The position numbers and the translations under genes were made by a program. From Bacteroidota bacterium (GTDB lineage: Bacteria > Bacteroidota > Bacteroidia > Bacteroidales > VadinHA17), in contig JBAXXU010000002.1 in assembly GCA_037127735.1 (NCBI GenBank), positions 18,406 through 82,405 of the forward strand: a stretch of DNA of 64,000 bases, read 5' to 3'. Shown here piece by piece: positions 39,909 through 52,558 of this stretch. Every line of letters starts with the position of its first letter. Within the stretch, counting starts at the first letter, position 1. The notes beneath the pieces are model-generated. The model did not search any database. It saw only the letters and a list, made by a program, of their open reading frames with translations, and had not been told where the DNA came from.

Positions 39909-42530
39909 ATGGAAGAATTATTTGTCCGGGAATCATCTATCGCTATAGAAAAGATATCGAAAGAACAATCAGCGACCGCGGTACGGAAAACAGTGGAAGG
40001 GAAAGATATTACCAGATCAAAAGAAAAAGCTGTTTATTCTCACGAGGAAGCTGTGGAAGCAAGTATTCAGTACTTCAGGGGAGATGAGCTGGCTGCACGG
40101 GTATGGGCAAATAAATATGCATTAAAGGATTCATTCGGGAACCTGTATGAAAAAACACCTGACGATATGCATCGCAGGCTGGCCCGCGAAATACACCGGG
40201 TGGAAAAGAAATATATAAACCCGCTTTCTGAAGATCTGATTTACAACGTCCTGAAAGATTTCAAATATATTGTTCCCCAGGGCGGACCAATGACAGGTAT
40301 TGGAAATGGCTACCAGATAGCCTCATTATCCAATTGTTTCGTCATTGGTAACGAGGGATCTTCAGACTCCTATGGGGGGATAATGAAAATTGACCAGGAA
40401 CAGGTACAACTTATGAAACGCCGTGGAGGAGTTGGTCACGATCTTTCGCATATCAGACCAAAAGGAACTCCTGTACTAAATAGCGCGCTTACCTCAACAG
40501 GAGTAGTCCCATTCATGGAAAGATATTCCAACTCAACACGCGAAGTGGCACAGGACGGCAGGAGAGGGGCACTTATGCTTTCAATCTCCATCAAACATCC
40601 CGATTCAGGTAAATTTATTGATGCAAAACTTGAAAGCGGAAAGGTTACCGGGGCAAACATCTCGGTTAAGCTTACCGACGATTTCATGAAAGCGGTTGAA
40701 AATAAATCGCTATTCAGACAGCAATATCCGATTAAATCTGATAATCCGAAGTTTGCAAAAGACATCGATGCAGTTAATTTATGGACCAAGATTATCCATA
40801 ATGCATGGAAGTCGGCCGAACCGGGTGTATTATTTTGGGATACAATAATAAAGGAGAGCGTTCCCGATTGTTATGCCGATCTCGGGTATGCCACAGTCTC
40901 TACAAATCCTTGCGGAGAAATTCCTTTGTGCCCGTACGATAGCTGCCGTCTGCTGGCAATTAACCTGTTCAGCTATGTCAACAATCCATTTACCGATAAA
41001 TCTGAATTTGACCTTGAATTATATAAAGAGCATGTAGGACTTGCACAACGTATAATGGATGACATTATTGATCTTGAACTGGAAAAGATCGATGCAATTC
41101 TTGTAAAAATAGATGCGGATCCCGAAATTGAAGAATTGAAACGCGTTGAAAGAAACCTCTGGAAAAATATCAGGATAAAAGCGGAAGAGGGAAGAAGAAC
41201 AGGAATAGGTATAACGGCTGAAGGAGATATGCTTGCCGGTCTTGGACTGAGATATGGCAGTGAAGATGCTACAAATTTCTCAGTTGAAGTTCATAAAACC
41301 CTTGCGCTCGAAACATACAAATCTTCAACCTATCTTGCAAAAGAGAGGGGTGCATTTGCAATTTATGATGAGGAACGTGAAAAAAACAATCCTTTCATAC
41401 TGAGGATGAAGGAAGCCGATCCGGTTATGTATAATAACATGGTTAAGTATGGCCGCAGGAATATTGCCCTTCTGACGATTGCTCCAACAGGAACCACCAG
41501 CCTTATGACCCAGACAACTTCCGGGATTGAACCAATCTTTTCAACTTTCTATAAAAGAAGAAGAAAGGTTAATCCAAATGACAAGGATGTTAAAGTGGCA
41601 TTTAAGGATGATGTTGGCGATTCGTGGGAAGAATTCAATGTATTTCATCATAAATTTGTTGACTGGCTGAAGCTGAATGGATACGATTCGGATGAAGTTA
41701 CGAGGATGAAAGATGAGGAAATTGAATCCATAATCGCGAAGTCGCCATATTATAAAGCCACTGCAAATGATGTTGACTGGATCGCGAAGGTTAAGATGCA
41801 GGGTGCAATCCAGAAATGGGTTGACCATTCAATAAGCGTTACCATAAACCTTCCTGCAGATGCAAAAGAAGAGCTGGTGAGCGAACTTTACATGACCGCC
41901 TGGAAATCGGGATGCAAAGGAGCAACGGTATATCGCGATGGATCAAGAACCGGAGTACTTATCGCGGGAAAGACCGAGGATCGTCCTGAAAGACCGAAAC
42001 GTCCTAAAATTCTGGATTGTGACGTGATAAGGTTTAACATTAATGAAGAGAAGTGGGTTGCTTTTGTCGGACTGAAAGAAAGCAGACCTTATGAGATATT
42101 CACAGGTATAGCCGAAGAGGAGATATTCCCTATTCCAAAAAGCATAATGAAGGGGAAAATTATCAAAATTAAAGATGATGATGGTAAGACGCGCTATGAC
42201 TTTCAGTTTACCGACAAATATGGGTATAAGAAAAATATTGAAGGCCTTTCGCACATGTTCAAACCGGAGTTCTGGAATTATGCAAAGCTTATTTCAGGAG
42301 TGTTGAGACATGAGATGCCAATACAAGATGTTGTTAATCTTGTTCAGTCGCTTAAGCTTGACAGTGAGTCAATTAACAACTGGAAAAACGGCGTGGAACG
42401 AGCCATGAAAAAATATATTCCAAACGGAACAAAAGCAAAAGGTAAATGTGGTGAGTGCGGTTCGGATAACCTGGTTTATCAGGAAGGGTGTCTCATCTGT
42501 AAAGACTGTGGGTCATCGAAATGTGGCTAG
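39909..42530 (+). CDS. nrdJ: Class II (adenosylcobalamin-dependent) ribonucleotide reductase
   Basis: SLSNCFV, RRGGVG, TNPCGEI, TIAPTGT, KG.TVYRDGSR and C-terminal Cys motifs CGEC...CKDCGSSKC. No ATP cone. Confidence 0.95.
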   Translation: MEELFVRESSIAIEKISKEQSATAVRKTVEGKDITRSKEKAVYSHEEAVEASIQYFRGDELAARVWANKYALKDSFGNLYEKTPDDMHRRLAREIHRVEKKYINPLSEDLIYNVLKDFKYIVPQGGPMTGIGNGYQIASLSNCFVIGNEGSSDSYGGIMKIDQEQVQLMKRRGGVGHDLSHIRPKGTPVLNSALTSTGVVPFMERYSNSTREVAQDGRRGALMLSISIKHPDSGKFIDAKLESGKVTGANISVKLTDDFMKAVENKSLFRQQYPIKSDNPKFAKDIDAVNLWTKIIHNAWKSAEPGVLFWDTIIKESVPDCYADLGYATVSTNPCGEIPLCPYDSCRLLAINLFSYVNNPFTDKSEFDLELYKEHVGLAQRIMDDIIDLELEKIDAILVKIDADPEIEELKRVERNLWKNIRIKAEEGRRTGIGITAEGDMLAGLGLRYGSEDATNFSVEVHKTLALETYKSSTYLAKERGAFAIYDEEREKNNPFILRMKEADPVMYNNMVKYGRRNIALLTIAPTGTTSLMTQTTSGIEPIFSTFYKRRRKVNPNDKDVKVAFKDDVGDSWEEFNVFHHKFVDWLKLNGYDSDEVTRMKDEEIESIIAKSPYYKATANDVDWIAKVKMQGAIQKWVDHSISVTINLPADAKEELVSELYMTAWKSGCKGATVYRDGSRTGVLIAGKTEDRPERPKRPKILDCDVIRFNINEEKWVAFVGLKESRPYEIFTGIAEEEIFPIPKSIMKGKIIKIKDDDGKTRYDFQFTDKYGYKKNIEGLSHMFKPEFWNYAKLISGVLRHEMPIQDVVNLVQSLKLDSESINNWKNGVERAMKKYIPNGTKAKGKCGECGSDNLVYQEGCLICKDCGSSKCG

Positions 42531-42594
42531 TTTAATGTAATTGATCCTTCGTTCAGGGAATATGTAATATATTAAACGACAACAAACAGGTATT

Positions 42595-43359
42595 TTAGCT
42601 TGGAGCAATTTTCTGGTCCTTTTTTGCACTGGTAGAATTCTCTTCATTCTTTCCTTTATAAACAAAGATCAGATTGTGGTAAAAATGAATTGAGATAATA
42701 TTCCTGTCAAAAAAGACCGGCTGGTATTCAGGGTTTAAAAAATCTTTGAAGTTAAGACCGTCAGTTAGTTTTTTAAAAAAATTCATTGATGTATCAGGAT
42801 TGTCAAATTTAGTACTGTCACCACCATAATCTGGCCAGTAAGAAGTGCAGGTATCTTCTATAACATAAATTCCTCCGTCACTCAATTTTGGGAACAATAT
42901 TTTAAATGATTCAATTACGTGTTCATTAATATGACTGCCATCATCGATAATGATATCTATATTACCTATCTCTGAACACACCTTATCAAGAAAAATTTTA
43001 TCTACCTGACTTCCCTGAAAAATTTTTATCCGATCCTCCTGAAGAGCAGACTTATCATAAATATCTATAGAGTAAATATTTCCAAGCTGAAAATATTTCT
43101 TCCACATTTTTAATGATTTTCCACCCGAATATGGTTTTTCATATCCACCGACACCAATTTCAAGCAGATTGATCTTCTTGTCTCTGAATCTATTAAAATG
43201 TAATTGATAATGAGTTGTATAAGAATGGTTTGCTGCCTTATCTGTTCCATAAATCTTCCCTAACTTATCCAAATCATCAGTGGAATACTTTGCTCTCAGT
43301 TCATTGATGGGATTCAGGATATGATTTTTAAATTTACGTAATCTGTTAAGTGCTTTCAT
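42595..43359 (-). CDS. SAM-dependent O-methyltransferase (MycE/TylE-like catalytic domain)
   Basis: YGTDK...H.Y, LLEIGVGG, GSQVD, IIIDDGSH and GGIYVIED. Confidence 0.75.
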   Translation of the reverse strand: MKALNRLRKFKNHILNPINELRAKYSTDDLDKLGKIYGTDKAANHSYTTHYQLHFNRFRDKKINLLEIGVGGYEKPYSGGKSLKMWKKYFQLGNIYSIDIYDKSALQEDRIKIFQGSQVDKIFLDKVCSEIGNIDIIIDDGSHINEHVIESFKILFPKLSDGGIYVIEDTCTSYWPDYGGDSTKFDNPDTSMNFFKKLTDGLNFKDFLNPEYQPVFFDRNIISIHFYHNLIFVYKGKNEENSTSAKKDQKIAPS

Positions 43360-43440
43360 AAAGGTGAAATTGTATTGTAAAACTATATCTGACGAAGGGT
43401 CATAAGGTCGATGGTAAAATAAGCATTTTATCGATAAAAG

Positions 43441-44517
43441 TTATTCATTGTTATAATTTCTTAATGGTTTAAGCATAATTGCGCACAATTTGTTTCCTCT
43501 GTCTTTACAAACAATTACATTTGGACTAAGTAATTTTCTTGATTTTCCGTAAATCCTTTTTGTGTATTCTTGTAATTTTCCGGCAGCTTTGTTCAAATAG
43601 TGAAATTTGATTAAAAGCAATTGGAGTGAGAATTTTAGATCCCCTTTTGAAGCAGCATGTTTAATCAACTCGCCGTTTTTATTGAAAAACGGTTTTGGTA
43701 AATTATTGTCATTTAATGATCGTATGCCAATAACACGATAATTCATCTTGAAGTACTCCCTGAAGTTGATGAAGCTGATACCAATATTAAGTTTTTCGGC
43801 AATGAAATTCATTGATTCCTCACCTAGCCACCAGCAATGGACAGGTGGAAGGTCTGAGGCCCAAACTACTTCTAAAGGATAAAAAGATTTATTTGGAGTT
43901 GTAATAATTGCCCGGCCACCTGGTTTAAGTAATCTTATGATGGAATCAATAAAATCCAAAGGCTTATTTACATGTTCTATAACTTCTGTTAAGATCACTA
44001 TATCATATGATTCAGGGTGGGACTCAGCATATTCAAATAAATCTTTACAAATAAAATGATCACCAAAGGTATTAGCTGCTAAAGTGACAGCCGTTTGAGA
44101 TACATCCAGCCCAATAACCTTATAATCTGCCTTTATTAATGAATACGTTAAATAGCCCAACCCACTTCCGATCTCCAGAATTTTTGTTGATGTTTTGTCT
44201 TTTACAAACATTTCCAAAGCTTTCTTTACACTCCAATAATCATCATCATTTCGTGCAAGGTAATCCAAAGGTTGAGAGATTTTTTTAATATTCTTAGCAT
44301 ACCTCCAATAACGGTTATACCCCGGTACTTTATCTCCGTTTTTATAGATGTTTTCATAAATAACAGTGCTATCATCCATGGGCAAAGAAAAACCGGTATT
44401 GCAGGTATGACAGTGATAAATTTTGTAAGTCAATGGCTCCTGGTAACCGGGATATTTATTATGTTTCAGTTTAGCTGTGCCTCTGCACAGAAGACATTCT
44501 GTTTCATTATTTTCCAT
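43441..44517 (-). CDS. Class I SAM-dependent methyltransferase with an N-terminal Cys (zinc-ribbon-like) motif
   Basis: CLLC...CHTC, ILEIGSGLG, GLDVS, YDIVILTEVIEHV, LLKPGG...ITTPN and PPVH. Confidence 0.8.
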   Translation of the reverse strand: MENNETECLLCRGTAKLKHNKYPGYQEPLTYKIYHCHTCNTGFSLPMDDSTVIYENIYKNGDKVPGYNRYWRYAKNIKKISQPLDYLARNDDDYWSVKKALEMFVKDKTSTKILEIGSGLGYLTYSLIKADYKVIGLDVSQTAVTLAANTFGDHFICKDLFEYAESHPESYDIVILTEVIEHVNKPLDFIDSIIRLLKPGGRAIITTPNKSFYPLEVVWASDLPPVHCWWLGEESMNFIAEKLNIGISFINFREYFKMNYRVIGIRSLNDNNLPKPFFNKNGELIKHAASKGDLKFSLQLLLIKFHYLNKAAGKLQEYTKRIYGKSRKLLSPNVIVCKDRGNKLCAIMLKPLRNYNNE

Positions 44518-44536
44518 GTGACATCTTTAGAATTTA

Positions 44537-45727
44537 CTACTTCAATATATCTAGTTCTCTTCCGATCTTTCCAAATGCCTTTATAGCTTTGTTGAGATGC
44601 TTTTCTTCATGGGCAGCTGATAATTGCACTCTTATTCTTGCCTGATCCTTTGGTACAACAGGAAAATAAAACCCGATAACATAAATTCCTTCTTTAAGAA
44701 GCCGGGCAGCAAATTCCTGAGATAGTTTGGCATCATAAAGCATTACTGCGCAAATTGCCGATTTAGTGGGTTTAATGTCAAACCCAAGATTTTTCAGCCC
44801 GGCAATAAAATATTCTGCATTCCGGTGGAGCTTCTCCTGCAACTCATTATTCTCAGTCATCATTTCAACCATCCTTATACCGGCAGCTGCAACCATTGGC
44901 GGTATTGAATTTGAAAACAGATAAGGTCGCGATCTCTGTCTGAGAAGCTCAATTATCTCTTTTTTACCGGTTGTAAACCCGCCGATTGCTCCACCAAACG
45001 CTTTCCCGAGGGTGCCGGTTATAATTTCAACCTTTCCTGTAATATTATAAAGTTCAGTAACTCCTCTTCCTGTTTTCCCGACAACCCCTGCTGAGTGTGA
45101 TTCGTCAACCATCACCATCGCGTTATACTTATTTGCCAGCTCTACGATTTTATCAAGAGGAGCTACATTACCATCCATTGAGAAAACACCATCTGTTACG
45201 ATAAGTCTGAACCTTTGTTCCTGGGCGAGTTGCAGTTGTGCTTCCAGATCGTCCATATCGGCATTTTCGTACCTGTAGCGCTGAGCTTTGCAAAGCCTAA
45301 CCCCATCAATTATTGAAGCATGATTCAGAGCATCAGAAATAATCGCATCTTCGCTTGTAAGCAAAGGTTCAAAAACACCTCCGTTAGCGTCAAAACAGGC
45401 AGCATAGAGAATTGTCTCTTCTGTTCCGAAAAATTCAGAGATTTTAGTCTCAAGTTCTTTATGCAGGTCAGTGGTACCGCAAATAAATCTGACAGATGAC
45501 ATTCCATAGCCATAATTGTCAAGAGAAGTTTTTGCTGCTTCAATCAGTGATGGATTGTTTGAAAGGCCGAGGTAGTTATTGGCACAGAAATTCAGAACTT
45601 TTTGACCTGTATTAAGTTCAATTTCAGCGCCCTGTGGTGAAACAATTACTCTTTCATTTTTGTAAAGACCGGCCTCTTTAATTTCTTTCAGCTGGGTATT
45701 GAGATGATTCTTATAGGCTTTATACAT
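44537..45727 (-). CDS. kbl: Glycine C-acetyltransferase (2-amino-3-ketobutyrate CoA ligase), Bacteroides-like copy
   Basis: GLYKNER, NFCANNYLGL, SSVRFICGT, SDALNHASIIDG, DESHSAG, GTLGKAFGG (PLP Lys), RPYLFSNS and ARIRVQ. Confidence 0.95.
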   Translation of the reverse strand: MYKAYKNHLNTQLKEIKEAGLYKNERVIVSPQGAEIELNTGQKVLNFCANNYLGLSNNPSLIEAAKTSLDNYGYGMSSVRFICGTTDLHKELETKISEFFGTEETILYAACFDANGGVFEPLLTSEDAIISDALNHASIIDGVRLCKAQRYRYENADMDDLEAQLQLAQEQRFRLIVTDGVFSMDGNVAPLDKIVELANKYNAMVMVDESHSAGVVGKTGRGVTELYNITGKVEIITGTLGKAFGGAIGGFTTGKKEIIELLRQRSRPYLFSNSIPPMVAAAGIRMVEMMTENNELQEKLHRNAEYFIAGLKNLGFDIKPTKSAICAVMLYDAKLSQEFAARLLKEGIYVIGFYFPVVPKDQARIRVQLSAAHEEKHLNKAIKAFGKIGRELDILK

Positions 45728-45787
45728 CTATATTCTTTTGCATTACAAATAAAATGCAAAATTGGCGATTTCTGAGCAAACAAAGCA

Positions 45788-45802
45788 TGATGATAATCAT
45801 CA
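45788..45802. promoter_or_regulatory. Perfect 7-1-7 inverted repeat TGATGAT-A-ATCATCA (Fur-family-like operator candidate)
   Basis: Lies in the 85-nt gap upstream of kbl, next to a -7-like CAATTTTG on the minus strand (45757-64). Confidence 0.4.
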
Positions 45803-45812
45803 ATTGAAATAA

Positions 45813-47060
45813 TCACAGTCCGTATTTTGCCACGATCTGTTCCCTGGTTATCCCCAGAATACCATATTTTTTTCCGACTTTAATGAATGAAGCCAGAGCT
45901 TTATCAAGATGGTGAATCTCATGTCCGGCAGATATCTGGGTCCTTATCCTTGCCTGACCGTTAGGCACAACAGGGAAAAAGAAACCAATAGCATAAATTC
46001 CTTCATTATAAAGATCTTTCGAAAAGTCCTGGGATAATTTTGCATTAAAGAACATTACCGGAACAATAGGGCTGTCTCCATCTTTAAGAATAAAACCGGC
46101 TTCTGTTAATCCTTTTCTCCAGTAGGCTGCATTTTTTTCCAGTTTATCCCTCCTTTCTGTACTTGAGGATAATATATCAAATACTCTCAGGACACCTGAT
46201 ACGATTACCGGAGCAATAGTGTTTGAAAAGAGATAAGGACGGGCCTTCTGTCTGCACATCTGCACTATCTCTTTTCTTCCTGAAACACATCCTCCCGATG
46301 CGCCTCCGAGGGCTTTTCCGAAGGTGGTAGTTATTATATCTATTTTCCCGATAACATTACAATGCTCGTGAGTACCGCGACCTGTTCTGCCAATGAACCC
46401 GGTTGAGTGGGAATCATCCACCAGTATCATTGCATCATATTTTTCACAAAGGGTTACCATCTCATCAAGTTTAGCTATATCCCCATCCATGGAAAAGACA
46501 CCGTCGGTAATTACAAGTTTTATCCTTTTATCTTCATGCAACCGGAGTTTTTCTTCAAGATGCTCCATGTTTGAATGTTTAAAAGTATCATGCTGTGCAC
46601 TGCATAGCCTCATCCCATCTATAATTGAAGCATGAACAAGCCTGTCGGAGATCATTACATCCTCGCTTGTCAGAATAGCTTCAAAAACACCTGCATTGGC
46701 ATCCATGCATGATGGGAACAGGATTGTGTCTTCTGTACCAAGAAACTCAGTAACTTTTTTTTCCAGTTCCCTGTGAATGTCCTGTGTGCCACAGATAAAA
46801 CGGACAGACGACATTCCATAACCTCTGCTCTCCAGACCCTCGTGGGCTGCCTTTATAACTTCCGGATGACTTGAAAGGCCAAGGTAATTATTAGCACACA
46901 TATTTATGACTTTCTTAACATCGGCTCCTGATGGAAACTCAACTTCAATGTCGGCAGCCTGTGAAGAATGAATGAACCTTTCTTCTTTATAGATCCCTGC
47001 ATTACGGATATCTCCGAGCTGGGTCTGATAAAGATGCTTGATCTTGTCGCTATAGCTCAT
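45813..47060 (-). CDS. Second, divergent Kbl-like alpha-oxoamine synthase
   Basis: NMCANNYLGL, SSVRFICGTQ, DDSHSTG, TTFGKALGG and ARIRTQ. Has an insertion near FPSGADVKK and a C-terminal extension. Confidence 0.9.
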   Translation of the reverse strand: MSYSDKIKHLYQTQLGDIRNAGIYKEERFIHSSQAADIEVEFPSGADVKKVINMCANNYLGLSSHPEVIKAAHEGLESRGYGMSSVRFICGTQDIHRELEKKVTEFLGTEDTILFPSCMDANAGVFEAILTSEDVMISDRLVHASIIDGMRLCSAQHDTFKHSNMEHLEEKLRLHEDKRIKLVITDGVFSMDGDIAKLDEMVTLCEKYDAMILVDDSHSTGFIGRTGRGTHEHCNVIGKIDIITTTFGKALGGASGGCVSGRKEIVQMCRQKARPYLFSNTIAPVIVSGVLRVFDILSSSTERRDKLEKNAAYWRKGLTEAGFILKDGDSPIVPVMFFNAKLSQDFSKDLYNEGIYAIGFFFPVVPNGQARIRTQISAGHEIHHLDKALASFIKVGKKYGILGITREQIVAKYGL

Positions 47061-47082
47061 CGTGTTTGTAAAATAAGGATAA

Positions 47083-47331
47083 TTACTGTTTAATATATTG
47101 ATTTACAAGCTCAACCATATTATTCACAGAGTCAAAAGCTTCAGGTGTTGCCTTTGCAGGTGGGATTTTTATCTTGAATTTATTCTCAATAAAAACCAGT
47201 AGTGACACCATTGAGAATGAGTCAACATAGCCACTTGATATCAAGGGAGTATCAAAGGTTATTTCTTCATCCTCGTCTTCCATGTATTCTTTTTTTACAT
47301 AATTCAGAATTATGTCTTTCATCTCTTCCAT
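47083..47331 (-). CDS. Acyl/aminoacyl carrier protein (DltC-like)
   Basis: 82 aa, acidic. L.SSGYVDSF with the phosphopantetheine site at Ser38, then IE.KF.IKI and F.SV..M. Confidence 0.9.
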   Translation of the reverse strand: MEEMKDIILNYVKKEYMEDEDEEITFDTPLISSGYVDSFSMVSLLVFIENKFKIKIPPAKATPEAFDSVNNMVELVNQYIKQ

Positions 47332-47363
47332 AGCACATTAAATTAAAGATTTATATTAAGTAT

Positions 47364-49067
47364 TTAATCGTTTTCAAGAGTGGAAATATCTCCGGTTTCC
47401 TCGCCCCATTCCTTTGCATGAAGTAGTCTTCTCATAATTTTCCCGCTTCGTGTTTTTGGGAGCTTATCCATATATTCAATTTCTTGTGGCATTGCCATGG
47501 GAGAAAGTTTTTTTCGGATAAAGTTCATTATTTCAAGTTCAAGATCAGGGCTTGCAGTAATTCCCGGTTTTAAAGTAATGAATGCCTTAACCACCTCCAT
47601 GTTAACGTCGTCAGGTTTAGCTACAACAGCAGATTCGCAGACAGCAGGATGCTGGAGAAGAGCAGATTCAACTTCAAAAGGACTTACCAGATGCCCTCCT
47701 GTATTAATAACATCATCATCTCTTCCGATAAACCAGAAATATCCTTCATTGTCTATTCTGGCCCTGTCGCCCGACAGGTACCAACCATTTATAAACTTCT
47801 CCCTGTACTTCGCATCATTGTTCCAGTATGCCCGCATCATGGCAGGCCATCCGGGTTTGAACGCGAGAAGCCCGATTTTCCCCGGTTCTCTGATCGGCTC
47901 AAAGGTTACCGGATCCAAAACTACACCCTCGATCCCGGGAAATGGTTTGCCCATTGAACCGGGCTTAACTTTCATACCGGGGAAATTTGTAATCATTATT
48001 GACCCTGTCTCTGTTTGCCAGAAAGTATCGAGGAATGGCTTTCCGAATTTTTTTTGCGACCAGATTACAGCTTCCGGGTTCAATGGTTCTCCCACACTGG
48101 CAAGGTGTCGCAAACTTGAGAGGTCATAATCCTTAATTATTTCATCACCTGCTTTCATCAACGATCTGATAGCGGTTGGTGCTGAATACCACATCGTGAT
48201 TTTCTGTTTCTCGATAAACTTATACCAGGCCTGGGCTGAGAAGCCTGAATCGAATACACACTGAGTGATGCCAAGGCTCCAGGGGCCAATAATACCATAA
48301 GAAGTGCCTGTAACCCATCCCGGATCAGCAGTGCACCAGTAAATATCGTCTTCCTGAAGGTCAAGCACCCACTTTGTTGTAAGATATTGTGAGATAAGAG
48401 AATAATGAACATGTTTTACCCCTTTAGGCTGTCCGGTAGTTCCGGAGGTATAGTGCAGCACAGAGGGTGATTCAGCTTCTGTAGGATAGATATTCATCTT
48501 CTCAACGGGGAAAGATGCATCCAGACTAAATGGCACCTCTTTGTTTTCCAGAGCTTTTGTTTTATTGTGATCAACGATGATAATAAATTCCAGGGAAGGA
48601 AGGCTCTCAACTATTTTTTTCACTTTTGGTAAATGTTTTCTCTGAGTAATTATTGCACGGGTTTGTGCATTATTGAGCCTTACAAAAAGTGATTCATCGC
48701 CAAATGCCGAAAACAGGGGCTGAACAATAGCTCCGATTTTTAATACTCCGAGAAAAGAAAGGTACAATTCAGGTATCCGGTCCATAAAAAGACAAACCCT
48801 GTCTTCATTCCTGATACCAAGCCCCGCCAGGAATGTGCCTATTGTATTACTTGCAAGGCGGATGTCATTAAAGGTAAATTTCTTTTCCACACCGCCAAAT
48901 CCCTCATAAATAAGGGCTGTTTTGTCAGACTTTCCCATCAGGCAAATCCGGTCAGAGCAGTACCATCCTATATTTATTTTATCACCATGCTTGTGTCCGA
49001 GTTCCTTTTCAGAAACTGACCAGTCAAAATCTTTAAGTCTTTCCTCGTAAGAACCTATATTTGACAT
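47364..49067 (-). CDS. AcsA-like short-chain acid adenylating ligase (acetate--CoA/ACP ligase)
   Basis: HYTSGTTGQPKG, WCTADPGWVTG, SVGEPLNPE, DTFWQTETG, SGDRA, GRDDD and LPKTRSGKIMRR. Likely start 49067. Confidence 0.9.
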   Translation of the reverse strand: MSNIGSYEERLKDFDWSVSEKELGHKHGDKINIGWYCSDRICLMGKSDKTALIYEGFGGVEKKFTFNDIRLASNTIGTFLAGLGIRNEDRVCLFMDRIPELYLSFLGVLKIGAIVQPLFSAFGDESLFVRLNNAQTRAIITQRKHLPKVKKIVESLPSLEFIIIVDHNKTKALENKEVPFSLDASFPVEKMNIYPTEAESPSVLHYTSGTTGQPKGVKHVHYSLISQYLTTKWVLDLQEDDIYWCTADPGWVTGTSYGIIGPWSLGITQCVFDSGFSAQAWYKFIEKQKITMWYSAPTAIRSLMKAGDEIIKDYDLSSLRHLASVGEPLNPEAVIWSQKKFGKPFLDTFWQTETGSIMITNFPGMKVKPGSMGKPFPGIEGVVLDPVTFEPIREPGKIGLLAFKPGWPAMMRAYWNNDAKYREKFINGWYLSGDRARIDNEGYFWFIGRDDDVINTGGHLVSPFEVESALLQHPAVCESAVVAKPDDVNMEVVKAFITLKPGITASPDLELEIMNFIRKKLSPMAMPQEIEYMDKLPKTRSGKIMRRLLHAKEWGEETGDISTLEND

Positions 49068-49130
49068 AAATGTAAATGTATGAAAGTTTAACAATGACAT
49101 CCAAGATAGTAAAAATTTTTGAAGAGTAAG

Positions 49131-50189
49131 CTATTTCTTGTGATTATTACCCTCCTGTTCCCAGTTTAAGATTATTTTACCGCAATTTCCTTCTTCCATG
49201 GCATCGAAACCCTTCTGAAAGTCATCTATAAAGAAACGATGTGTGATAACAGGATTCAGATCTATTCCTCCAATGATCATCTGTTCCATTTTATACCATG
49301 TTTCCCACATCTCTCTTCCATAGATACCCTTCAGGGTTATTGCCTTGAAAATGATATCACTCCACGGAACTTCAAAGTTCGACGGGAGAATCCCCAGCAA
49401 TGAAATGCTCGATCCATTGTACATATTGCTGAGCATCTCAACGAACGCTTTTGGCGACCCCGACATCTCAAGTCCGATATCAAATCCCCTCATTCCAAGT
49501 TTAGCAACCGCATCAGAGATTTTTTCTCTTTTTGATGGATTGACTGTAATTGTTGCCCCCATCTTTTTAGCGATGTCAAGGCGGAAATCACTTAGATCGC
49601 TTGCAACAATGAACCTTGCACCTGCAAACCTGGCAATCGCCACGGCCATGCTTCCGATAAGTCCCGAACCAGTTATCAAAACATCTTCCCCAAGGAGTGG
49701 GAACGATAAAGCTGTATGAGTTGCATTTCCAAATGGATCCATAATCGCGGCCCACTCGTCAGGGATTCGAGGGTCGAGTGGAATCACGTTTTTGGCAGGT
49801 ACCTTTACATACTCTGCAAATGATCCATCGATATGTACGCCAATGCCTACAGTATTTTCGCACACATGCTCCTTGCTACGGCGACAGTTACGGCAATGGC
49901 CGCAAGCCAGATGGCCCTCACCTGTTACTCTTTCGCCCGTTTTAAGATTGGTAACTCCTGCCCCCATCATTTCAATATGCCCCATGTACTCATGGCCTAT
50001 CGTCATTGGTGTTTTGATAGTTTTTTGTGACCATTCATCCCACTCATAAATATGGAGATCGGTGCCACAGATTGCTGACTTCTGCACTTTTATAATAACA
50101 TCATTAAGGCCCGGTTCAGGAATAGGAACTTCCTGCATCCACAACCCCTTTTCGGGTCTGGCTTTGACAAGTGCCTTCATCTTCTTCAT
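49131..50189 (-). CDS. tdh: L-threonine 3-dehydrogenase (Zn-dependent MDR type)
   Basis: ICGTDLHIY.WD.W, GHE, GEGH..CGHCRNC.....H.C, DPFGNA.HT, EMSG and GIYGREMWETW. Confidence 0.9.
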   Translation of the reverse strand: MKKMKALVKARPEKGLWMQEVPIPEPGLNDVIIKVQKSAICGTDLHIYEWDEWSQKTIKTPMTIGHEYMGHIEMMGAGVTNLKTGERVTGEGHLACGHCRNCRRSKEHVCENTVGIGVHIDGSFAEYVKVPAKNVIPLDPRIPDEWAAIMDPFGNATHTALSFPLLGEDVLITGSGLIGSMAVAIARFAGARFIVASDLSDFRLDIAKKMGATITVNPSKREKISDAVAKLGMRGFDIGLEMSGSPKAFVEMLSNMYNGSSISLLGILPSNFEVPWSDIIFKAITLKGIYGREMWETWYKMEQMIIGGIDLNPVITHRFFIDDFQKGFDAMEEGNCGKIILNWEQEGNNHKK

Positions 50190-50236
50190 AACGAACAGCT
50201 TTAAAGGTGGTAATTATTAGTTCTGCTAAATTAATA

Positions 50237-50244
50237 CAAAACTA
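50237..50244 (-). promoter_or_regulatory. -7 element TAGTTTTG for the tdh module
   Basis: CAAAACTA on the + strand, about 47 nt upstream of the tdh ATG. Confidence 0.45.
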
Positions 50245-50294
50245 TGGTACAAAACCTGATTTTTGTAATAGTATTATATGTAATCGGGTTTGTA

Positions 50295-50302
50295 TATCTT
50301 TG
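50295..50302 (+). promoter_or_regulatory. -7 element TATCTTTG for gltX
   Basis: TAnnTTTG 28 nt upstream of ATG 50331, which supports that start over 50244. Confidence 0.6.
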
Positions 50303-50330
50303 TACATATTTTAACCTATATATTCCTTAT

Positions 50331-51839
50331 ATGGCACAAGTCAGAGTACGTTTTGCCCCAAGCCCTACCGGGCCTTTGCACATCGGAGGCGTCAGGACGG
50401 CCCTGTATAATTACATTTTCGCGAAAAAAAGCGGAGGTATTTTCATTTTAAGAATTGAAGATACAGATCAGGCGCGTTTTGTTGAAGGAGCAGAGGAATA
50501 TATTATGGAGGCGCTTAAATGGTGCGGAATAATTGTTGATGAAGGGATCAAAGAGGGAGGAGATTTTGGCCCTTACCGGCAGAGCGACAAAAAAGCAATA
50601 TACAGACAATACGCAGATATTCTTATAAATAATGGCGATGCATATTATGCTTTTGATACTCCGGAACAACTTGAAACATTAAGAAATGAATCGGAAAAAA
50701 CAGGCAATACATTTATTTATAATGCAGAAGTAAGAGAAAAACTAAATAACTCGGTCTCTTTGCAGGAAACAGAATGGAAGCGTAAACTTGATAATGGGGA
50801 ACCTTATGTTATACGCTACAAAATGCCTCATAACGAGGATATACATTTTGATGATATTATCCGGGGGAACATTGTTGTAAACACTTCCACCCTCGATGAT
50901 AAAGTTTTATTCAAATCTGACGGCATGCCTACATATCACCTGGCTAATATTGTTGACGATCATCTTATGAAGATAAGCCATGTTATCCGTGGGGAAGAGT
51001 GGCTCCCTTCATTACCCCTTCACTTTATGCTTTATCGGTCTTTCGGATGGGATACCCCTCTCTTTGCCCACCTTCCTTTACTTCTTAAGCCGGATGGGAA
51101 AGGGAAATTAAGTAAACGTGACGGTGACAAATTGGGATTTCCGGTTTTTCCCCTTTTCTGGCCCTATGGAGAAACAGCAAAAGGATACCGTGAAGAAGGA
51201 TATTATGCCGATGCATTTGTAAATATGCTGGCTCTGCTGGGATGGAACCCGGGTACAGAACAGGAATTTTTTTCAATGAAGGAGCTGACTGAAGCCTTTA
51301 CTCTTGACAGGGTTGGTAAATCGGGTTCACGGTTTGACCCTGAAAAAGCAAAATGGTTCAATCACCATTATCTTCAGAACAAAACAAGTACTCAGCTGGC
51401 CCTTGAGTTCAGAGAGTTCCTGAGAGCTCGTGGATATCATGTTGACATTGTTCAGCTTGAGACTCTTGTCGGGCTCGTGAAAGAGAGAGTAAGTTTTGTT
51501 AAGGATATATGGGACCAGACCGATTTCTTTTTTAAAGCTCCGGAAACTTATGATCAGGAAGTGATTAAAAAGCGATGGAAAGAGGATTCAGCTATGCTTC
51601 TTATGGAATTAAAATGTTTGTTAGAAAAGATTAACGATTTTTCAGCTGCCAATACCGAACTTCTTGTTAAAGCCTGGATTGAGGAAAAGGGATATAACAC
51701 CTCGACAATTATGAGCGCTCTCAGATTGGTAATTGTTGGCACATCGCGTGGCCCTCATATTTTCGACATAATAAGCTGGATCGGAAGGGAGGAGACCCTT
51801 AAACGGATAGACAAAGGATTTTCAGTAATTGGTAAATAA
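50331..51839 (+). CDS. gltX: Glutamate--tRNA ligase
   Basis: VRVRFAPSPTGPLHIGG, RIEDTDQ.R, PTYHLANIVDD, IRGEEW and KLSKR. Confidence 0.98.
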   Translation: MAQVRVRFAPSPTGPLHIGGVRTALYNYIFAKKSGGIFILRIEDTDQARFVEGAEEYIMEALKWCGIIVDEGIKEGGDFGPYRQSDKKAIYRQYADILINNGDAYYAFDTPEQLETLRNESEKTGNTFIYNAEVREKLNNSVSLQETEWKRKLDNGEPYVIRYKMPHNEDIHFDDIIRGNIVVNTSTLDDKVLFKSDGMPTYHLANIVDDHLMKISHVIRGEEWLPSLPLHFMLYRSFGWDTPLFAHLPLLLKPDGKGKLSKRDGDKLGFPVFPLFWPYGETAKGYREEGYYADAFVNMLALLGWNPGTEQEFFSMKELTEAFTLDRVGKSGSRFDPEKAKWFNHHYLQNKTSTQLALEFREFLRARGYHVDIVQLETLVGLVKERVSFVKDIWDQTDFFFKAPETYDQEVIKKRWKEDSAMLLMELKCLLEKINDFSAANTELLVKAWIEEKGYNTSTIMSALRLVIVGTSRGPHIFDIISWIGREETLKRIDKGFSVIGK

Positions 51840-51844
51840 TAGAG

Positions 51845-52558
51845 ATGAATCTTCCGCGGCCAGGAGACTATATTGATATCCACACTCATGATGCCAGGCC
51901 TGCTGCAGGTATTTTCGTCATCGAGAATCTGATGGCACATGAAGACAGATTACCCGAAGATGATTCAGGATTTGTTTATTCCTATGGCATACATCCCTGG
52001 TTTCTTAATGAAAAAAATCATAATCAACTAATCAGTTCTGTAGAAAATTCAGTCAATCTCCCCAATATGATAGCTATTGGTGAAGCAGGATTTGATAAAC
52101 TTCGCGGACCATCGCAGGAACTTCAGCGGGAAGTTTTTGAAGAGCAGGTTGAAATAGCTGAGGCCCATGCAAAGCCTGTTATTATTCATTGTGTCAGAGC
52201 CTGGGATGAACTTCTTGAAGCTCATAAAAAAGCTCACCCGAAAATGCCCTGGCTCATACATGGATTCAGAGGCAAAAAGGAGCTCGCGGCACAGCTCCTG
52301 TCAAAAGGAATGTACCTTTCATTCTGGTTCGATTTTGTGATAAAACCGGAATCTTCAGGCCTTATAAAGAGTTTGCCAACCGACAGGATATTTCTTGAAA
52401 CAGATGGAGCAGAGGTAGATATACGGGAAATTTATAAAAAAGTTGCAGGAGATCTCAATATTTCAGTGGGTGAATTAAAAGCAATTGTACTATCGAATTT
52501 TAATCTGTTTTTTAACCAACCTGCCCCCAAAGAGGGAGGTGCAAATAATAATAAATAA
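51845..52558 (+). CDS. TatD-family hydrolase
   Basis: DIHTH, GIHPW, IGEAGFD, IIHCVRA, HGF and LETD. Confidence 0.92.
   Translation: MNLPRPGDYIDIHTHDARPAAGIFVIENLMAHEDRLPEDDSGFVYSYGIHPWFLNEKNHNQLISSVENSVNLPNMIAIGEAGFDKLRGPSQELQREVFEEQVEIAEAHAKPVIIHCVRAWDELLEAHKKAHPKMPWLIHGFRGKKELAAQLLSKGMYLSFWFDFVIKPESSGLIKSLPTDRIFLETDGAEVDIREIYKKVAGDLNISVGELKAIVLSNFNLFFNQPAPKEGGANNNK

Follow-up and report, generated by a model that had tools for sequence, protein, structure and literature searches.

Threonine is cleaved by the Tdh-Kbl pathway (EC 1.1.1.103 and EC 2.3.1.29), which Escherichia coli encodes in its kbl-tdh operon. Here we describe a 64,000-nt stretch of DNA (hereafter the window) from an uncultured, anaerobic Bacteroidota bacterium of the Bacteroidales lineage VadinHA17, in which an AMP-forming ligase of the AcsA type and an acyl carrier protein (ACP), together with a divergent Kbl-type alpha-oxoamine synthase (KblA), stand between tdh and a canonical kbl gene (kblB). 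A trio of similar logic, AasR-AcpR-SPT, is documented for the sphingolipids of Caulobacter and other Rhodobacteria: a ligase of the ANL family selectively loads a specialised ACP, not coenzyme A (CoA), and the resulting acyl-ACP is preferred by the adjacently encoded alpha-oxoamine synthase, which its authors suggest may serve to sequester the acyl pool (PMC9386255). A first-pass annotation of the window had invoked this precedent, which is real, and had proposed that the locus encodes an undescribed pathway; our literature searches found no paper describing a ligase-ACP-KblA cassette.

The locus shares with the Tdh-Kbl pathway a Tdh, two Kbl-family enzymes, a canonical tdh-kblB operon and, in KblA, the Kbl motifs that we checked together with a Kbl-specific valine. 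It differs in the dedicated carrier protein and AcsA-type ligase that are attached to KblA, and in KblA itself, which belongs to a separate clade (53% identity to KblB), carries a fixed insertion and lacks the basic loop at the presumed CoA-adenosyl site. With AasR-AcpR-SPT it has in common the logic of ligase, specialised ACP and alpha-oxoamine synthase, selective loading of the ACP being predicted here; unlike that system, its ligase is derived from AcsA and, judging from an acetate pocket, would handle a C2 acyl group instead of palmitate, its synthase is of the Kbl type (using glycine, with a product that keeps the carboxylate) instead of SPT, and its partners are threonine dehydrogenases (TDH) instead of ceramide enzymes. 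Likenesses to Dlt D-alanylation (DltA-DltC-DltB-DltD; PMC9338922, PMC11035591) lie in the small acidic carrier, which is weakly DltC-like (37 bits), in its proposed loading by an ANL ligase and, in one derived sub-clade, in the handover to a DltB-like MBOAT; however, an acetate pocket sets the ligase apart from a D-alanine ligase, the ACP falls short of the DltC cut-off, and an MBOAT is found neither in the window nor in most cassettes. Finally, the ligase resembles the short AcsA of PDB entry 9g79 and SaAcs1 in passing the NF003313 model, in its intact acetate pocket and catalytic lysine and in some Pat- or ActP-like neighbours, and SaAcs1 offers a precedent for reverse, ATP-forming use (PMC4992975, PMC13404658); it differs from them in being strictly co-inherited with a carrier protein and in carrying Leu for Arg526 and Met for Arg580 (SeAcs numbering). 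We tested the defining features of the SPT, BioF, Dlt and OlsHI systems, and since these do not hold here, the locus falls outside all four. Rather, the cassette is a real, conserved and undescribed variant that combines the Tdh-Kbl pathway with AasR-AcpR-SPT logic, and to which we ascribe a predicted chemistry.

The ligase-ACP-KblA unit and its insertion into the tdh-kblB operon

All five genes of the locus lie on the minus strand. The first, tdh (49131-50189), encodes an L-threonine 3-dehydrogenase of the MDR (zinc) type (352 aa) that is a full-length equivalog match (NF003808, 521.8 bits against a cut-off of 380; TIGR00692, 458.5 against 458.35). It is followed by the ligase gene (47364-49100 as the longest open reading frame, ORF), whose product we propose to be an acetate:ACP ligase; by the gene for an 82-aa acidic carrier protein with a predicted phosphopantetheine site at Ser38 (47083-47331); by kblA (45813-47060), for a 415-aa enzyme proposed to be an acetyl-ACP-using glycine C-acetyltransferase; and by kblB (44537-45727), for a canonical glycine C-acetyltransferase of 396 aa that we propose to be the original partner of tdh. 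The first-pass annotation had listed the first four of these as co-oriented genes with gaps of 63, 32 and 22 nt. All four ORFs were confirmed at its coordinates; the ligase-ACP and ACP-KblA gaps of 32 and 22 nt are exact, and the tdh-ligase gap is 63 nt if the ligase starts at Met12 (49067) and 30 nt with the longest ORF. We favour the Met12 start (567 aa), because tblastn matches of orthologs begin at residues 9-12 and the ORF at one related locus (L100) begins MSNIGNY. The family assignments also held, each above its cut-off (Tdh, NF003808; ligase, NF003313; ACP, PF00550; KblA, NF005394 and TIGR01822), but a fifth co-oriented gene, the canonical kblB, whose start lies 85 nt beyond kblA, had been overlooked.

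From 403 relatives of the ligase, obtained by scanning one genome per species, the best 80 loci (74-89% identity) were kept, and their gene content was established by tblastn and by clustering of all ORFs. The order ligase-ACP-KblA is kept in about 60 of the 80, an arrangement far beyond chance given this recurrence. The proposed module does recur across genomes, but the conserved unit is ligase-ACP-KblA, often with the phosphopantetheinyl transferase (PPTase) AcpS, and not the four-gene order. The ACP lies 3' of the ligase almost throughout, 60 full-length KblA-type genes come after the ACP, AcpS is present in 35 loci (mostly immediately 5' of the ligase), and two Kbl genes occur together in 36. 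Where a ligase locus seemed to lack an ACP, the genome encodes one elsewhere (8/8 genomes), in four cases as an ACP-KblA pair. The metagenome-assembled genomes (MAGs) that hold the trio carry the labels of seven or more phyla, namely Bacteroidota, Cloacimonadota, Zixibacteria, Aminicenantes/Acidobacteriota, Armatimonadota, Delongbacteria and Chlorobiota, and across these phylum labels identity is 74-89% for the ligase and 75-94% for KblA. The closest relatives are peat MAGs labelled Bacteroidales, and the MAGs with the cassette, all uncultured, come from samples such as peat and sediment.

Threonine dehydrogenases stand beside the cassette in 40 of the 80 loci, and they are of two non-homologous kinds: the MDR type in 19, and in 21 an SDR (GalE-like) type that matches solved L-threonine dehydrogenases (E=1e-122). 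The usual order is sdrTDH-AcpS-ligase-ACP-KblA in MAGs that bear the labels Zixibacteria, Cloacimonadota, Armatimonadota and Aminicenantes, and where the trio has no adjoining TDH, 17 of the 18 genomes concerned encode one elsewhere. Of the comparative arguments that the trio serves threonine and 2-amino-3-ketobutyrate, this association with two TDH families of separate origin is the strongest. In six loci the cassette is flanked by putative acetate carriers of two unrelated kinds, a VC_2705/ActP-like symporter pair or SatP/YaaH, and in three by a Pat-like acetyltransferase. No other consistently coupled partner gene was found: the tightly linked extra genes (cupin, two-component system, radical SAM, PfkB kinase, EF-G-like, domains of unknown function) are mutually unrelated and were rejected as further partners.

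At L100 (G033:C676, 2063-6935) a 5.3-kb stretch separates the ligase from the ACP-KblA pair and encodes two large repeat proteins of 999 and 558 aa, with signal-peptide-like starts and tails resembling type IX secretion signals. The ligase proteins of L039 and L042 are identical although their MAGs are labelled 'Firmicutes bacterium ADurb.Bin080' and Prolixibacteraceae, so one of the labels is probably wrong.

Among 41 relatives, orthologs of the ligase (at least 75% identity) and of the ACP occur in exactly the same eight; the remaining relatives have a canonical Acs of 640-660 aa (about 40% identity) or none. MDR tdh belongs to the core of the genus, with a copy in 22 of 25 genomes, 21 of them above the cut-off. 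Four members of the genus that lack the trio (L101-L104) have, at the same site, gltX<- ->tdh-kblB ... <-nrd, and of 400 other Bacteroidota, sampled evenly, just two genomes hold an ACP ortholog. With tdh-kblB at the same site where the trio is missing, the three genes represent an accessory insertion that separates tdh from kblB in a pre-existing canonical threonine-cleavage operon; and because a canonical KblB remains in the same operon, the module adds to the CoA route without replacing it.

Substrate and thiol-partner signatures of the three proteins

The ligase, the sole AcsA-type gene in the window's genome, passes the acetate--CoA ligase equivalog NF003313 (756.9 bits against a cut-off of 729) and has the 572-aa acetyl-CoA synthetase 9g79 as its best match in the PDB. 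Its acetate pocket (V263/T264/V336/W361) and catalytic Lys554 are conserved, with the closing Trp, W361, kept in 78 of the 80 orthologs. CoA binding and the thioester step of SeAcs are reported to depend critically on three conserved residues, Arg191, Arg526 and Arg584, and Ala at the Arg526-equivalent position leaves the M. thermautotrophicus Acs unsaturable for CoA (PMC10455477). The Arg526 position is Leu471 in the window ligase and Leu in all 80 ACP-linked orthologs; the Arg580 position is Met525 and is likewise Met in 80/80. Six CoA-type comparators have Arg at the former and Arg or Lys at the latter. A more distant paralog, L093 (G033:C359, 415-2010; 548 aa, 47% identical), has Phe at the pocket-closing Trp and no carrier-protein ORF downstream, and may be a ligase with another acyl substrate.

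Both Kbl equivalogs are passed by KblA (NF005394, 574 bits against 460; TIGR01822, 572 against 493), as they are by KblB (635 and 667 bits, respectively). KblA stays under the cut-offs of the SPT models (326 vs 640, 280 vs 500 and 236 vs 670), of BioF (361 vs 426) and of a CqsA-type model (193 vs 428). It has HASIIDG with the stacking histidine, DDSH (D-x-SH), TFGKALGG with the pyridoxal phosphate lysine and ARIR with the carboxylate arginine, all of which we take, by reference to E. coli Kbl, to be the catalytic motifs of the family. Near the substrate C-alpha lies a valine that all KBLs are reported to share and that SPT, AONS and ALAS lack (PMC11906848); by our own motif placement this residue, Val79 of ThAOS, falls in SVRFICGT, which is present in 61/61 KblA and 36/36 KblB sequences. 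With the acetate pocket retained in the ligase, the Kbl motifs and Kbl-specific valine retained in KblA, and the SPT, BioF and CqsA models failed, acetate and glycine are most likely the substrates of the two enzymes. Serine, alanine or another short acid, which the first-pass annotation had entertained, are unlikely, since the acetate pocket and this valine are kept.

The divergence of KblA noted earlier was borne out by a tree, in which KblA (61 sequences) and KblB form distinct clades with a support of 99; members of the KblA clade have a median identity of 82% to the window KblA and 53% to KblB. An invariant 5-aa insertion (E41-x-P43-x-G45) marks the clade. At the position 14 residues past the catalytic His, 36/36 KblB have Arg and 54/61 KblA have His, and the canonical basic loop K147/R150/R152 reads S/H/T in KblA (Lys147 replaced by Ser, Pro or Ala and Arg152 by Thr), so that a loop charge of +2 to +5 in canonical Kbl compares with 0 in KblA. 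Kbl R150 aligns with Lys156 of R. capsulatus ALAS, an enzyme in which that lysine, 14 residues beyond the catalytic His142, lines the pocket that takes up the adenosyl group of the acyl-CoA; in mouse ALAS2, the substitution K221V raises the Km for succinyl-CoA 23-fold (PMC4615937). Ligase and KblA thus both lack conserved basic residues tied to CoA handling, which we read as indirect signs of a changed thiol partner.

The carrier protein passes PF00550 (27.4 bits against a gathering cut-off of 20.8) and stays below the cut-offs of DltC (37.4 vs 68), of the AcpP model TIGR00517 (28.1 vs 70.45) and of ACP_for_OlsHI (52.7 vs 130). The last, its nearest NCBIfam model, derives from a planctomycete pathway, and an identity as an OlsHI-type ornithine-lipid ACP was rejected with the score so far under the cut-off. 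That the 82-aa protein carries its Ser38 in GYVDSF had been correctly recognised: this serine is invariant in 60 orthologs, as is the core PLISxGxVDSFSMVSL, and their median net charge is -9. The 64-kb window contains no PPTase, as the annotation had said; the genome's two PF01648 matches lie on contigs C9 and C8. No AcpS was found in the window's own genome, where both PF01648 PPTases look Sfp-like by the length of their open frames.

Proposed chemistry and its direction

Taken together, these signatures suggest a core chemistry that is probably correct in outline: acetate would be interconverted with acetyl-S-ACP by the ligase, acetyl-S-ACP and glycine with 2-amino-3-ketobutyrate by KblA, and 2-amino-3-ketobutyrate with threonine by Tdh. 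Before this a PPTase would have to arm Ser38 of the ACP; here this would be one of the two encoded in the genome outside the window, and in 35 other loci the AcpS of the cassette. The ligase would then adenylate acetate and transfer the acetyl group to holo-ACP, KblA would release holo-ACP on condensing acetyl-S-ACP with glycine, or take it up in the opposite sense, and Tdh would work between 2-amino-3-ketobutyrate and L-threonine with NAD(H). A private ACP pool of this kind would uncouple the Kbl equilibrium from the cellular acetyl-CoA/CoA ratio.

As to direction, we tentatively favour the forward, acetate-loading one, a preference that falls short of an even bet. Here ATP-driven loading of scavenged acetate would push the otherwise unfavourable condensation with glycine toward ketobutyrate and threonine, and the CoA-dependent KblB would serve the opposite, cleaving direction, much as ACP and CoA separate fatty-acid synthesis from fatty-acid degradation. 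Several lines of evidence point this way: the enzyme family to which the ligase belongs, the acetate carriers and Pat-like genes that flank some cassettes, and an offshoot of the family in which the ligase would charge the ACP. This offshoot comprises seven loci where a DltB-like MBOAT and a partner of about 300 aa come after the ligase-ACP pair, and KblA is absent; since the pair is followed by the MBOAT only, the ligase is the sole candidate there and must be the ACP loader. AasR-AcpR-SPT, the documented trio, also loads its ACP and excludes CoA (PMC9386255).

A number of observations weigh against this reading. The ligase passes a curated cut-off for acetate--CoA ligases, and in all 80 ligases the Arg equivalent to SeAcs Arg584, which contacts the CoA 3'-phosphate, is retained. 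The R191/R194 CoA loop is deleted in the ligase, but it is likewise deleted in the 572-aa acetyl-CoA synthetase 9g79, and Leu at the Arg526 position is also found in the 47%-identical paralog L093, which has no adjoining ACP. Nor is the ACP bound to KblA alone: at L012 and L046 the ligase-ACP pair stands beside a KblB-type gene and KblA is absent. At these loci (L012/L106 and L046/L107) the KblB-type gene, 83-91% identical to KblB, follows the ACP directly, so that either KblA was lost or KblB is able to serve the ACP. Extra threonine synthesis is not obviously needed, since thrC is present in 41/41 relatives (34 above the family cut-off, the window genome included) and in 15 of the 21 cassette genomes from other phyla. 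Moreover, the cassette would be co-transcribed with tdh and the cleaving KblB, and opposed directions within one operon would partly cancel. Similarly, ackA occurs in 40/41 relatives, again including the window genome. With both thrC and ackA in the genome, the module is not the sole threonine route, nor is it the sole route from an acetyl-thioester to ATP, and on these counts we rejected the ideas that the cassette replaces threonine synthase or Pta-AckA. Neither of the directions sketched in the first-pass annotation is therefore needed as a sole route.

The same chemistry could run the other way and conserve energy as a branch of threonine fermentation, which we regard as possible though rather unlikely. 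Tdh would oxidise threonine, KblA with holo-ACP would cleave 2-amino-3-ketobutyrate to glycine and acetyl-S-ACP, and the ligase would convert acetyl-S-ACP, AMP and pyrophosphate (PPi) to acetate, ATP and holo-ACP; the private carrier would let the ratio of acetyl-thioester to thiol climb enough for ATP formation, with no CoA tied up. The position of the trio within a catabolic tdh-kblB operon, tdh first, argues for this, and cleavage by both Kbl enzymes is the only reading of the co-transcription without conflict. So do the nature of the cassette as a self-contained accessory unit in uncultured MAGs from peat, sediment and similar samples, the unusually high conservation of ligase and KblA across phylum labels, and a PPi-linked energy economy in the window genome, whose genes include those for an ion-pumping membrane pyrophosphatase and for pyruvate,phosphate dikinase (PPDK). 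SatP-type channels, moreover, can pass acetate either way. An AMP-forming Acs that makes ATP from acetyl-CoA, AMP and PPi is on record in Syntrophus aciditrophicus (PMC4992975; PMC13404658). However, the published determinants of catalytic bias in this enzyme, SaAcs1, reside in a CoA-binding loop that is deleted in the ligase and in 9g79 and are inapplicable here; ATP is already obtainable from acetyl-thioester where ackA is present; and the MBOAT-linked sub-clade requires a forward-running ligase. We also know of no ANL enzyme that unloads a carrier protein for ATP.

Three further readings have no more than a small chance each. Ligase and ACP might mainly supply acetyl-ACP as the acyl donor of transferases, for instance of DltB-like MBOATs responsible for the acetylation of a surface polymer, with KblA as a second route that charges or drains the acetyl-ACP pool from threonine. 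We consider this improbable, despite the seven ligase-ACP-MBOAT loci without KblA, an MBOAT pair inside the clusters of the window's closest relatives (L011 and L012), and the genome G007, whose single ligase goes with two ACP copies, one by KblA and one by an MBOAT. MBOATs of this type (c10) with at least 67% identity are confined to G000, G007 and G010, all cassette carriers; yet G013, G018, G022 and G033 carry the cassette with no c10-type match and G001 has only a 43% homolog, the MBOAT-only ligases are a small derived sub-clade nested within the Bacteroidales KblA + MDR-Tdh clade, the window genome's own two c10-type MBOATs lie by nonribosomal peptide synthetase (NRPS) genes on contig C9, away from the cassette, and most loci from other phyla have no MBOAT nearby. 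With close homologs only in the window's immediate clade, MBOAT as a general consumer of acetyl-ACP was rejected. Very improbable, in our view, is that the ligase is an ordinary acetyl-CoA synthetase and KblA a CoA-dependent Kbl isozyme, the ACP being unrelated or loaded otherwise. Such a reading would fit the scores of both enzymes, above curated cut-offs of CoA enzymes, the retained Arg584 equivalent, the standing of the ligase as the only Acs-type gene of its genome, and Pat-like and ActP-like neighbours that are typical of true acs loci; it would leave unexplained the perfect co-occurrence of ligase and ACP (8/41 relatives and the 8/8 exception genomes), the ACP-KblA pair that holds together even apart from the ligase, the linked AcpS in 35 loci, the fixed losses of CoA-related basic residues in both enzymes, and the MBOAT-only loci, which have no other candidate ACP loader. 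Finally, a lipid or long-chain starter module (for a sphingoid base, aminolipid or quorum signal, in the manner of AasR-AcpR-SPT or CqsA) shares the gene logic of ligase, specialised ACP and alpha-oxoamine synthase (PMC9386255) but has a next to negligible chance: the acyl pocket is closed by the acetate-specific Trp, KblA fails every SPT, BioF and CqsA-type model and passes Kbl, no ceramide synthase, reductase or other lipid gene is found among the neighbours, and both TDH types are linked to the trio. On these grounds the sphingolipid and other lipid readings were rejected.

At L099 (G007:C46, 5870-8598) the second ACP of G007, 85% identical to the window ACP, precedes an MBOAT and a 293-aa partner; the single AcsA-like ligase of G007 is not nearby but on another contig. 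Outside the window, contig C9 of the window's genome carries an NRPS-like cluster (about 8.8-66.7 kb) with two giant ANL/carrier ORFs of 3789 and 3122 aa and an adjoining PF01648 PPTase. Its two c10-type MBOATs are 67-69% identical to the MBOAT beside the L011 cassette, and each has a partner of about 300 aa. At 8.8-12.7 kb of the same contig lies a separate Dlt-like set (497-aa ligase, 79-aa ORF, 478-aa MBOAT).

Flanking features and wider significance

Upstream of tdh, the first-pass annotation had seen a sequence element of the operon's own. A Bacteroidota -7-like promoter element, TAGTTTTG, does lie at 50237-50244 on the minus strand, 47 nt 5' of the tdh ATG; however, its motif class, TAnnTTTG, occurs 68 times in the window against 68.8 expected, which is chance frequency, and a second copy of TAGTTTTG falls within the ligase gene (47916-47923). 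Its promoter role is therefore only positionally suggestive, with no statistical support. The longest ORF of gltX begins at 50244 on the plus strand and overlaps this element (region 50244-50331); the first 29 residues look hydrophobic and non-conserved, and translation probably starts at the Met of MAQVRVRFAPSPTG instead. Between the operon genes there is no minus-strand terminator-like site. Rfam scans gave no match at gathering thresholds in 12 diverse loci, nor any at E<=0.1 in positions 42000-52000 of the window, and with no riboswitch or leader RNA in these scans a regulatory RNA was dropped as a pointer to direction. Beyond kblB, with gaps of 19 and 81 nt, come two S-adenosylmethionine-methyltransferase-like genes (42595-44517, minus strand; 358 aa, Methyltransf_23, and 254 aa, a weak CmcI-like match). 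Relatives have a different, 294-aa gene at this spot, which looks like variable cargo between kblB and nrd, outside the cassette.

In its widest form our proposal is that a private acetyl-ACP pool acts as a CoA-independent C2 currency in central amino-acid metabolism across many uncultured anaerobes, and in its boldest form that it supports a new substrate-level phosphorylation, in which threonine would pass through 2-amino-3-ketobutyrate and acetyl-S-ACP to acetate and ATP by means of an Acs-derived ligase reversed on a protein-bound thioester. We put this forward as a doubtful but possible extension. If the underlying inference is right, three genes that annotation pipelines label as routine housekeeping (acetate--CoA ligase, acyl carrier protein, glycine C-acetyltransferase) would conceal an undescribed means by which a protein carrier moves acetyl groups among acetate, glycine and threonine, spread over many uncultured anaerobic lineages of peat, sediments and similar habitats. 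Specialised ACP pools would then extend from lipid synthesis to C2 and amino-acid metabolism, and the cassette would provide either a new ATP-yielding step or an ATP-driven route from glycine and acetate to threonine. The MBOAT-linked offshoot, for its part, suggests a candidate acetyl donor for MBOAT-type O-acetylation systems. Metabolic reconstructions from MAGs would change as well, where the ligase is now read as an acetyl-CoA synthetase.

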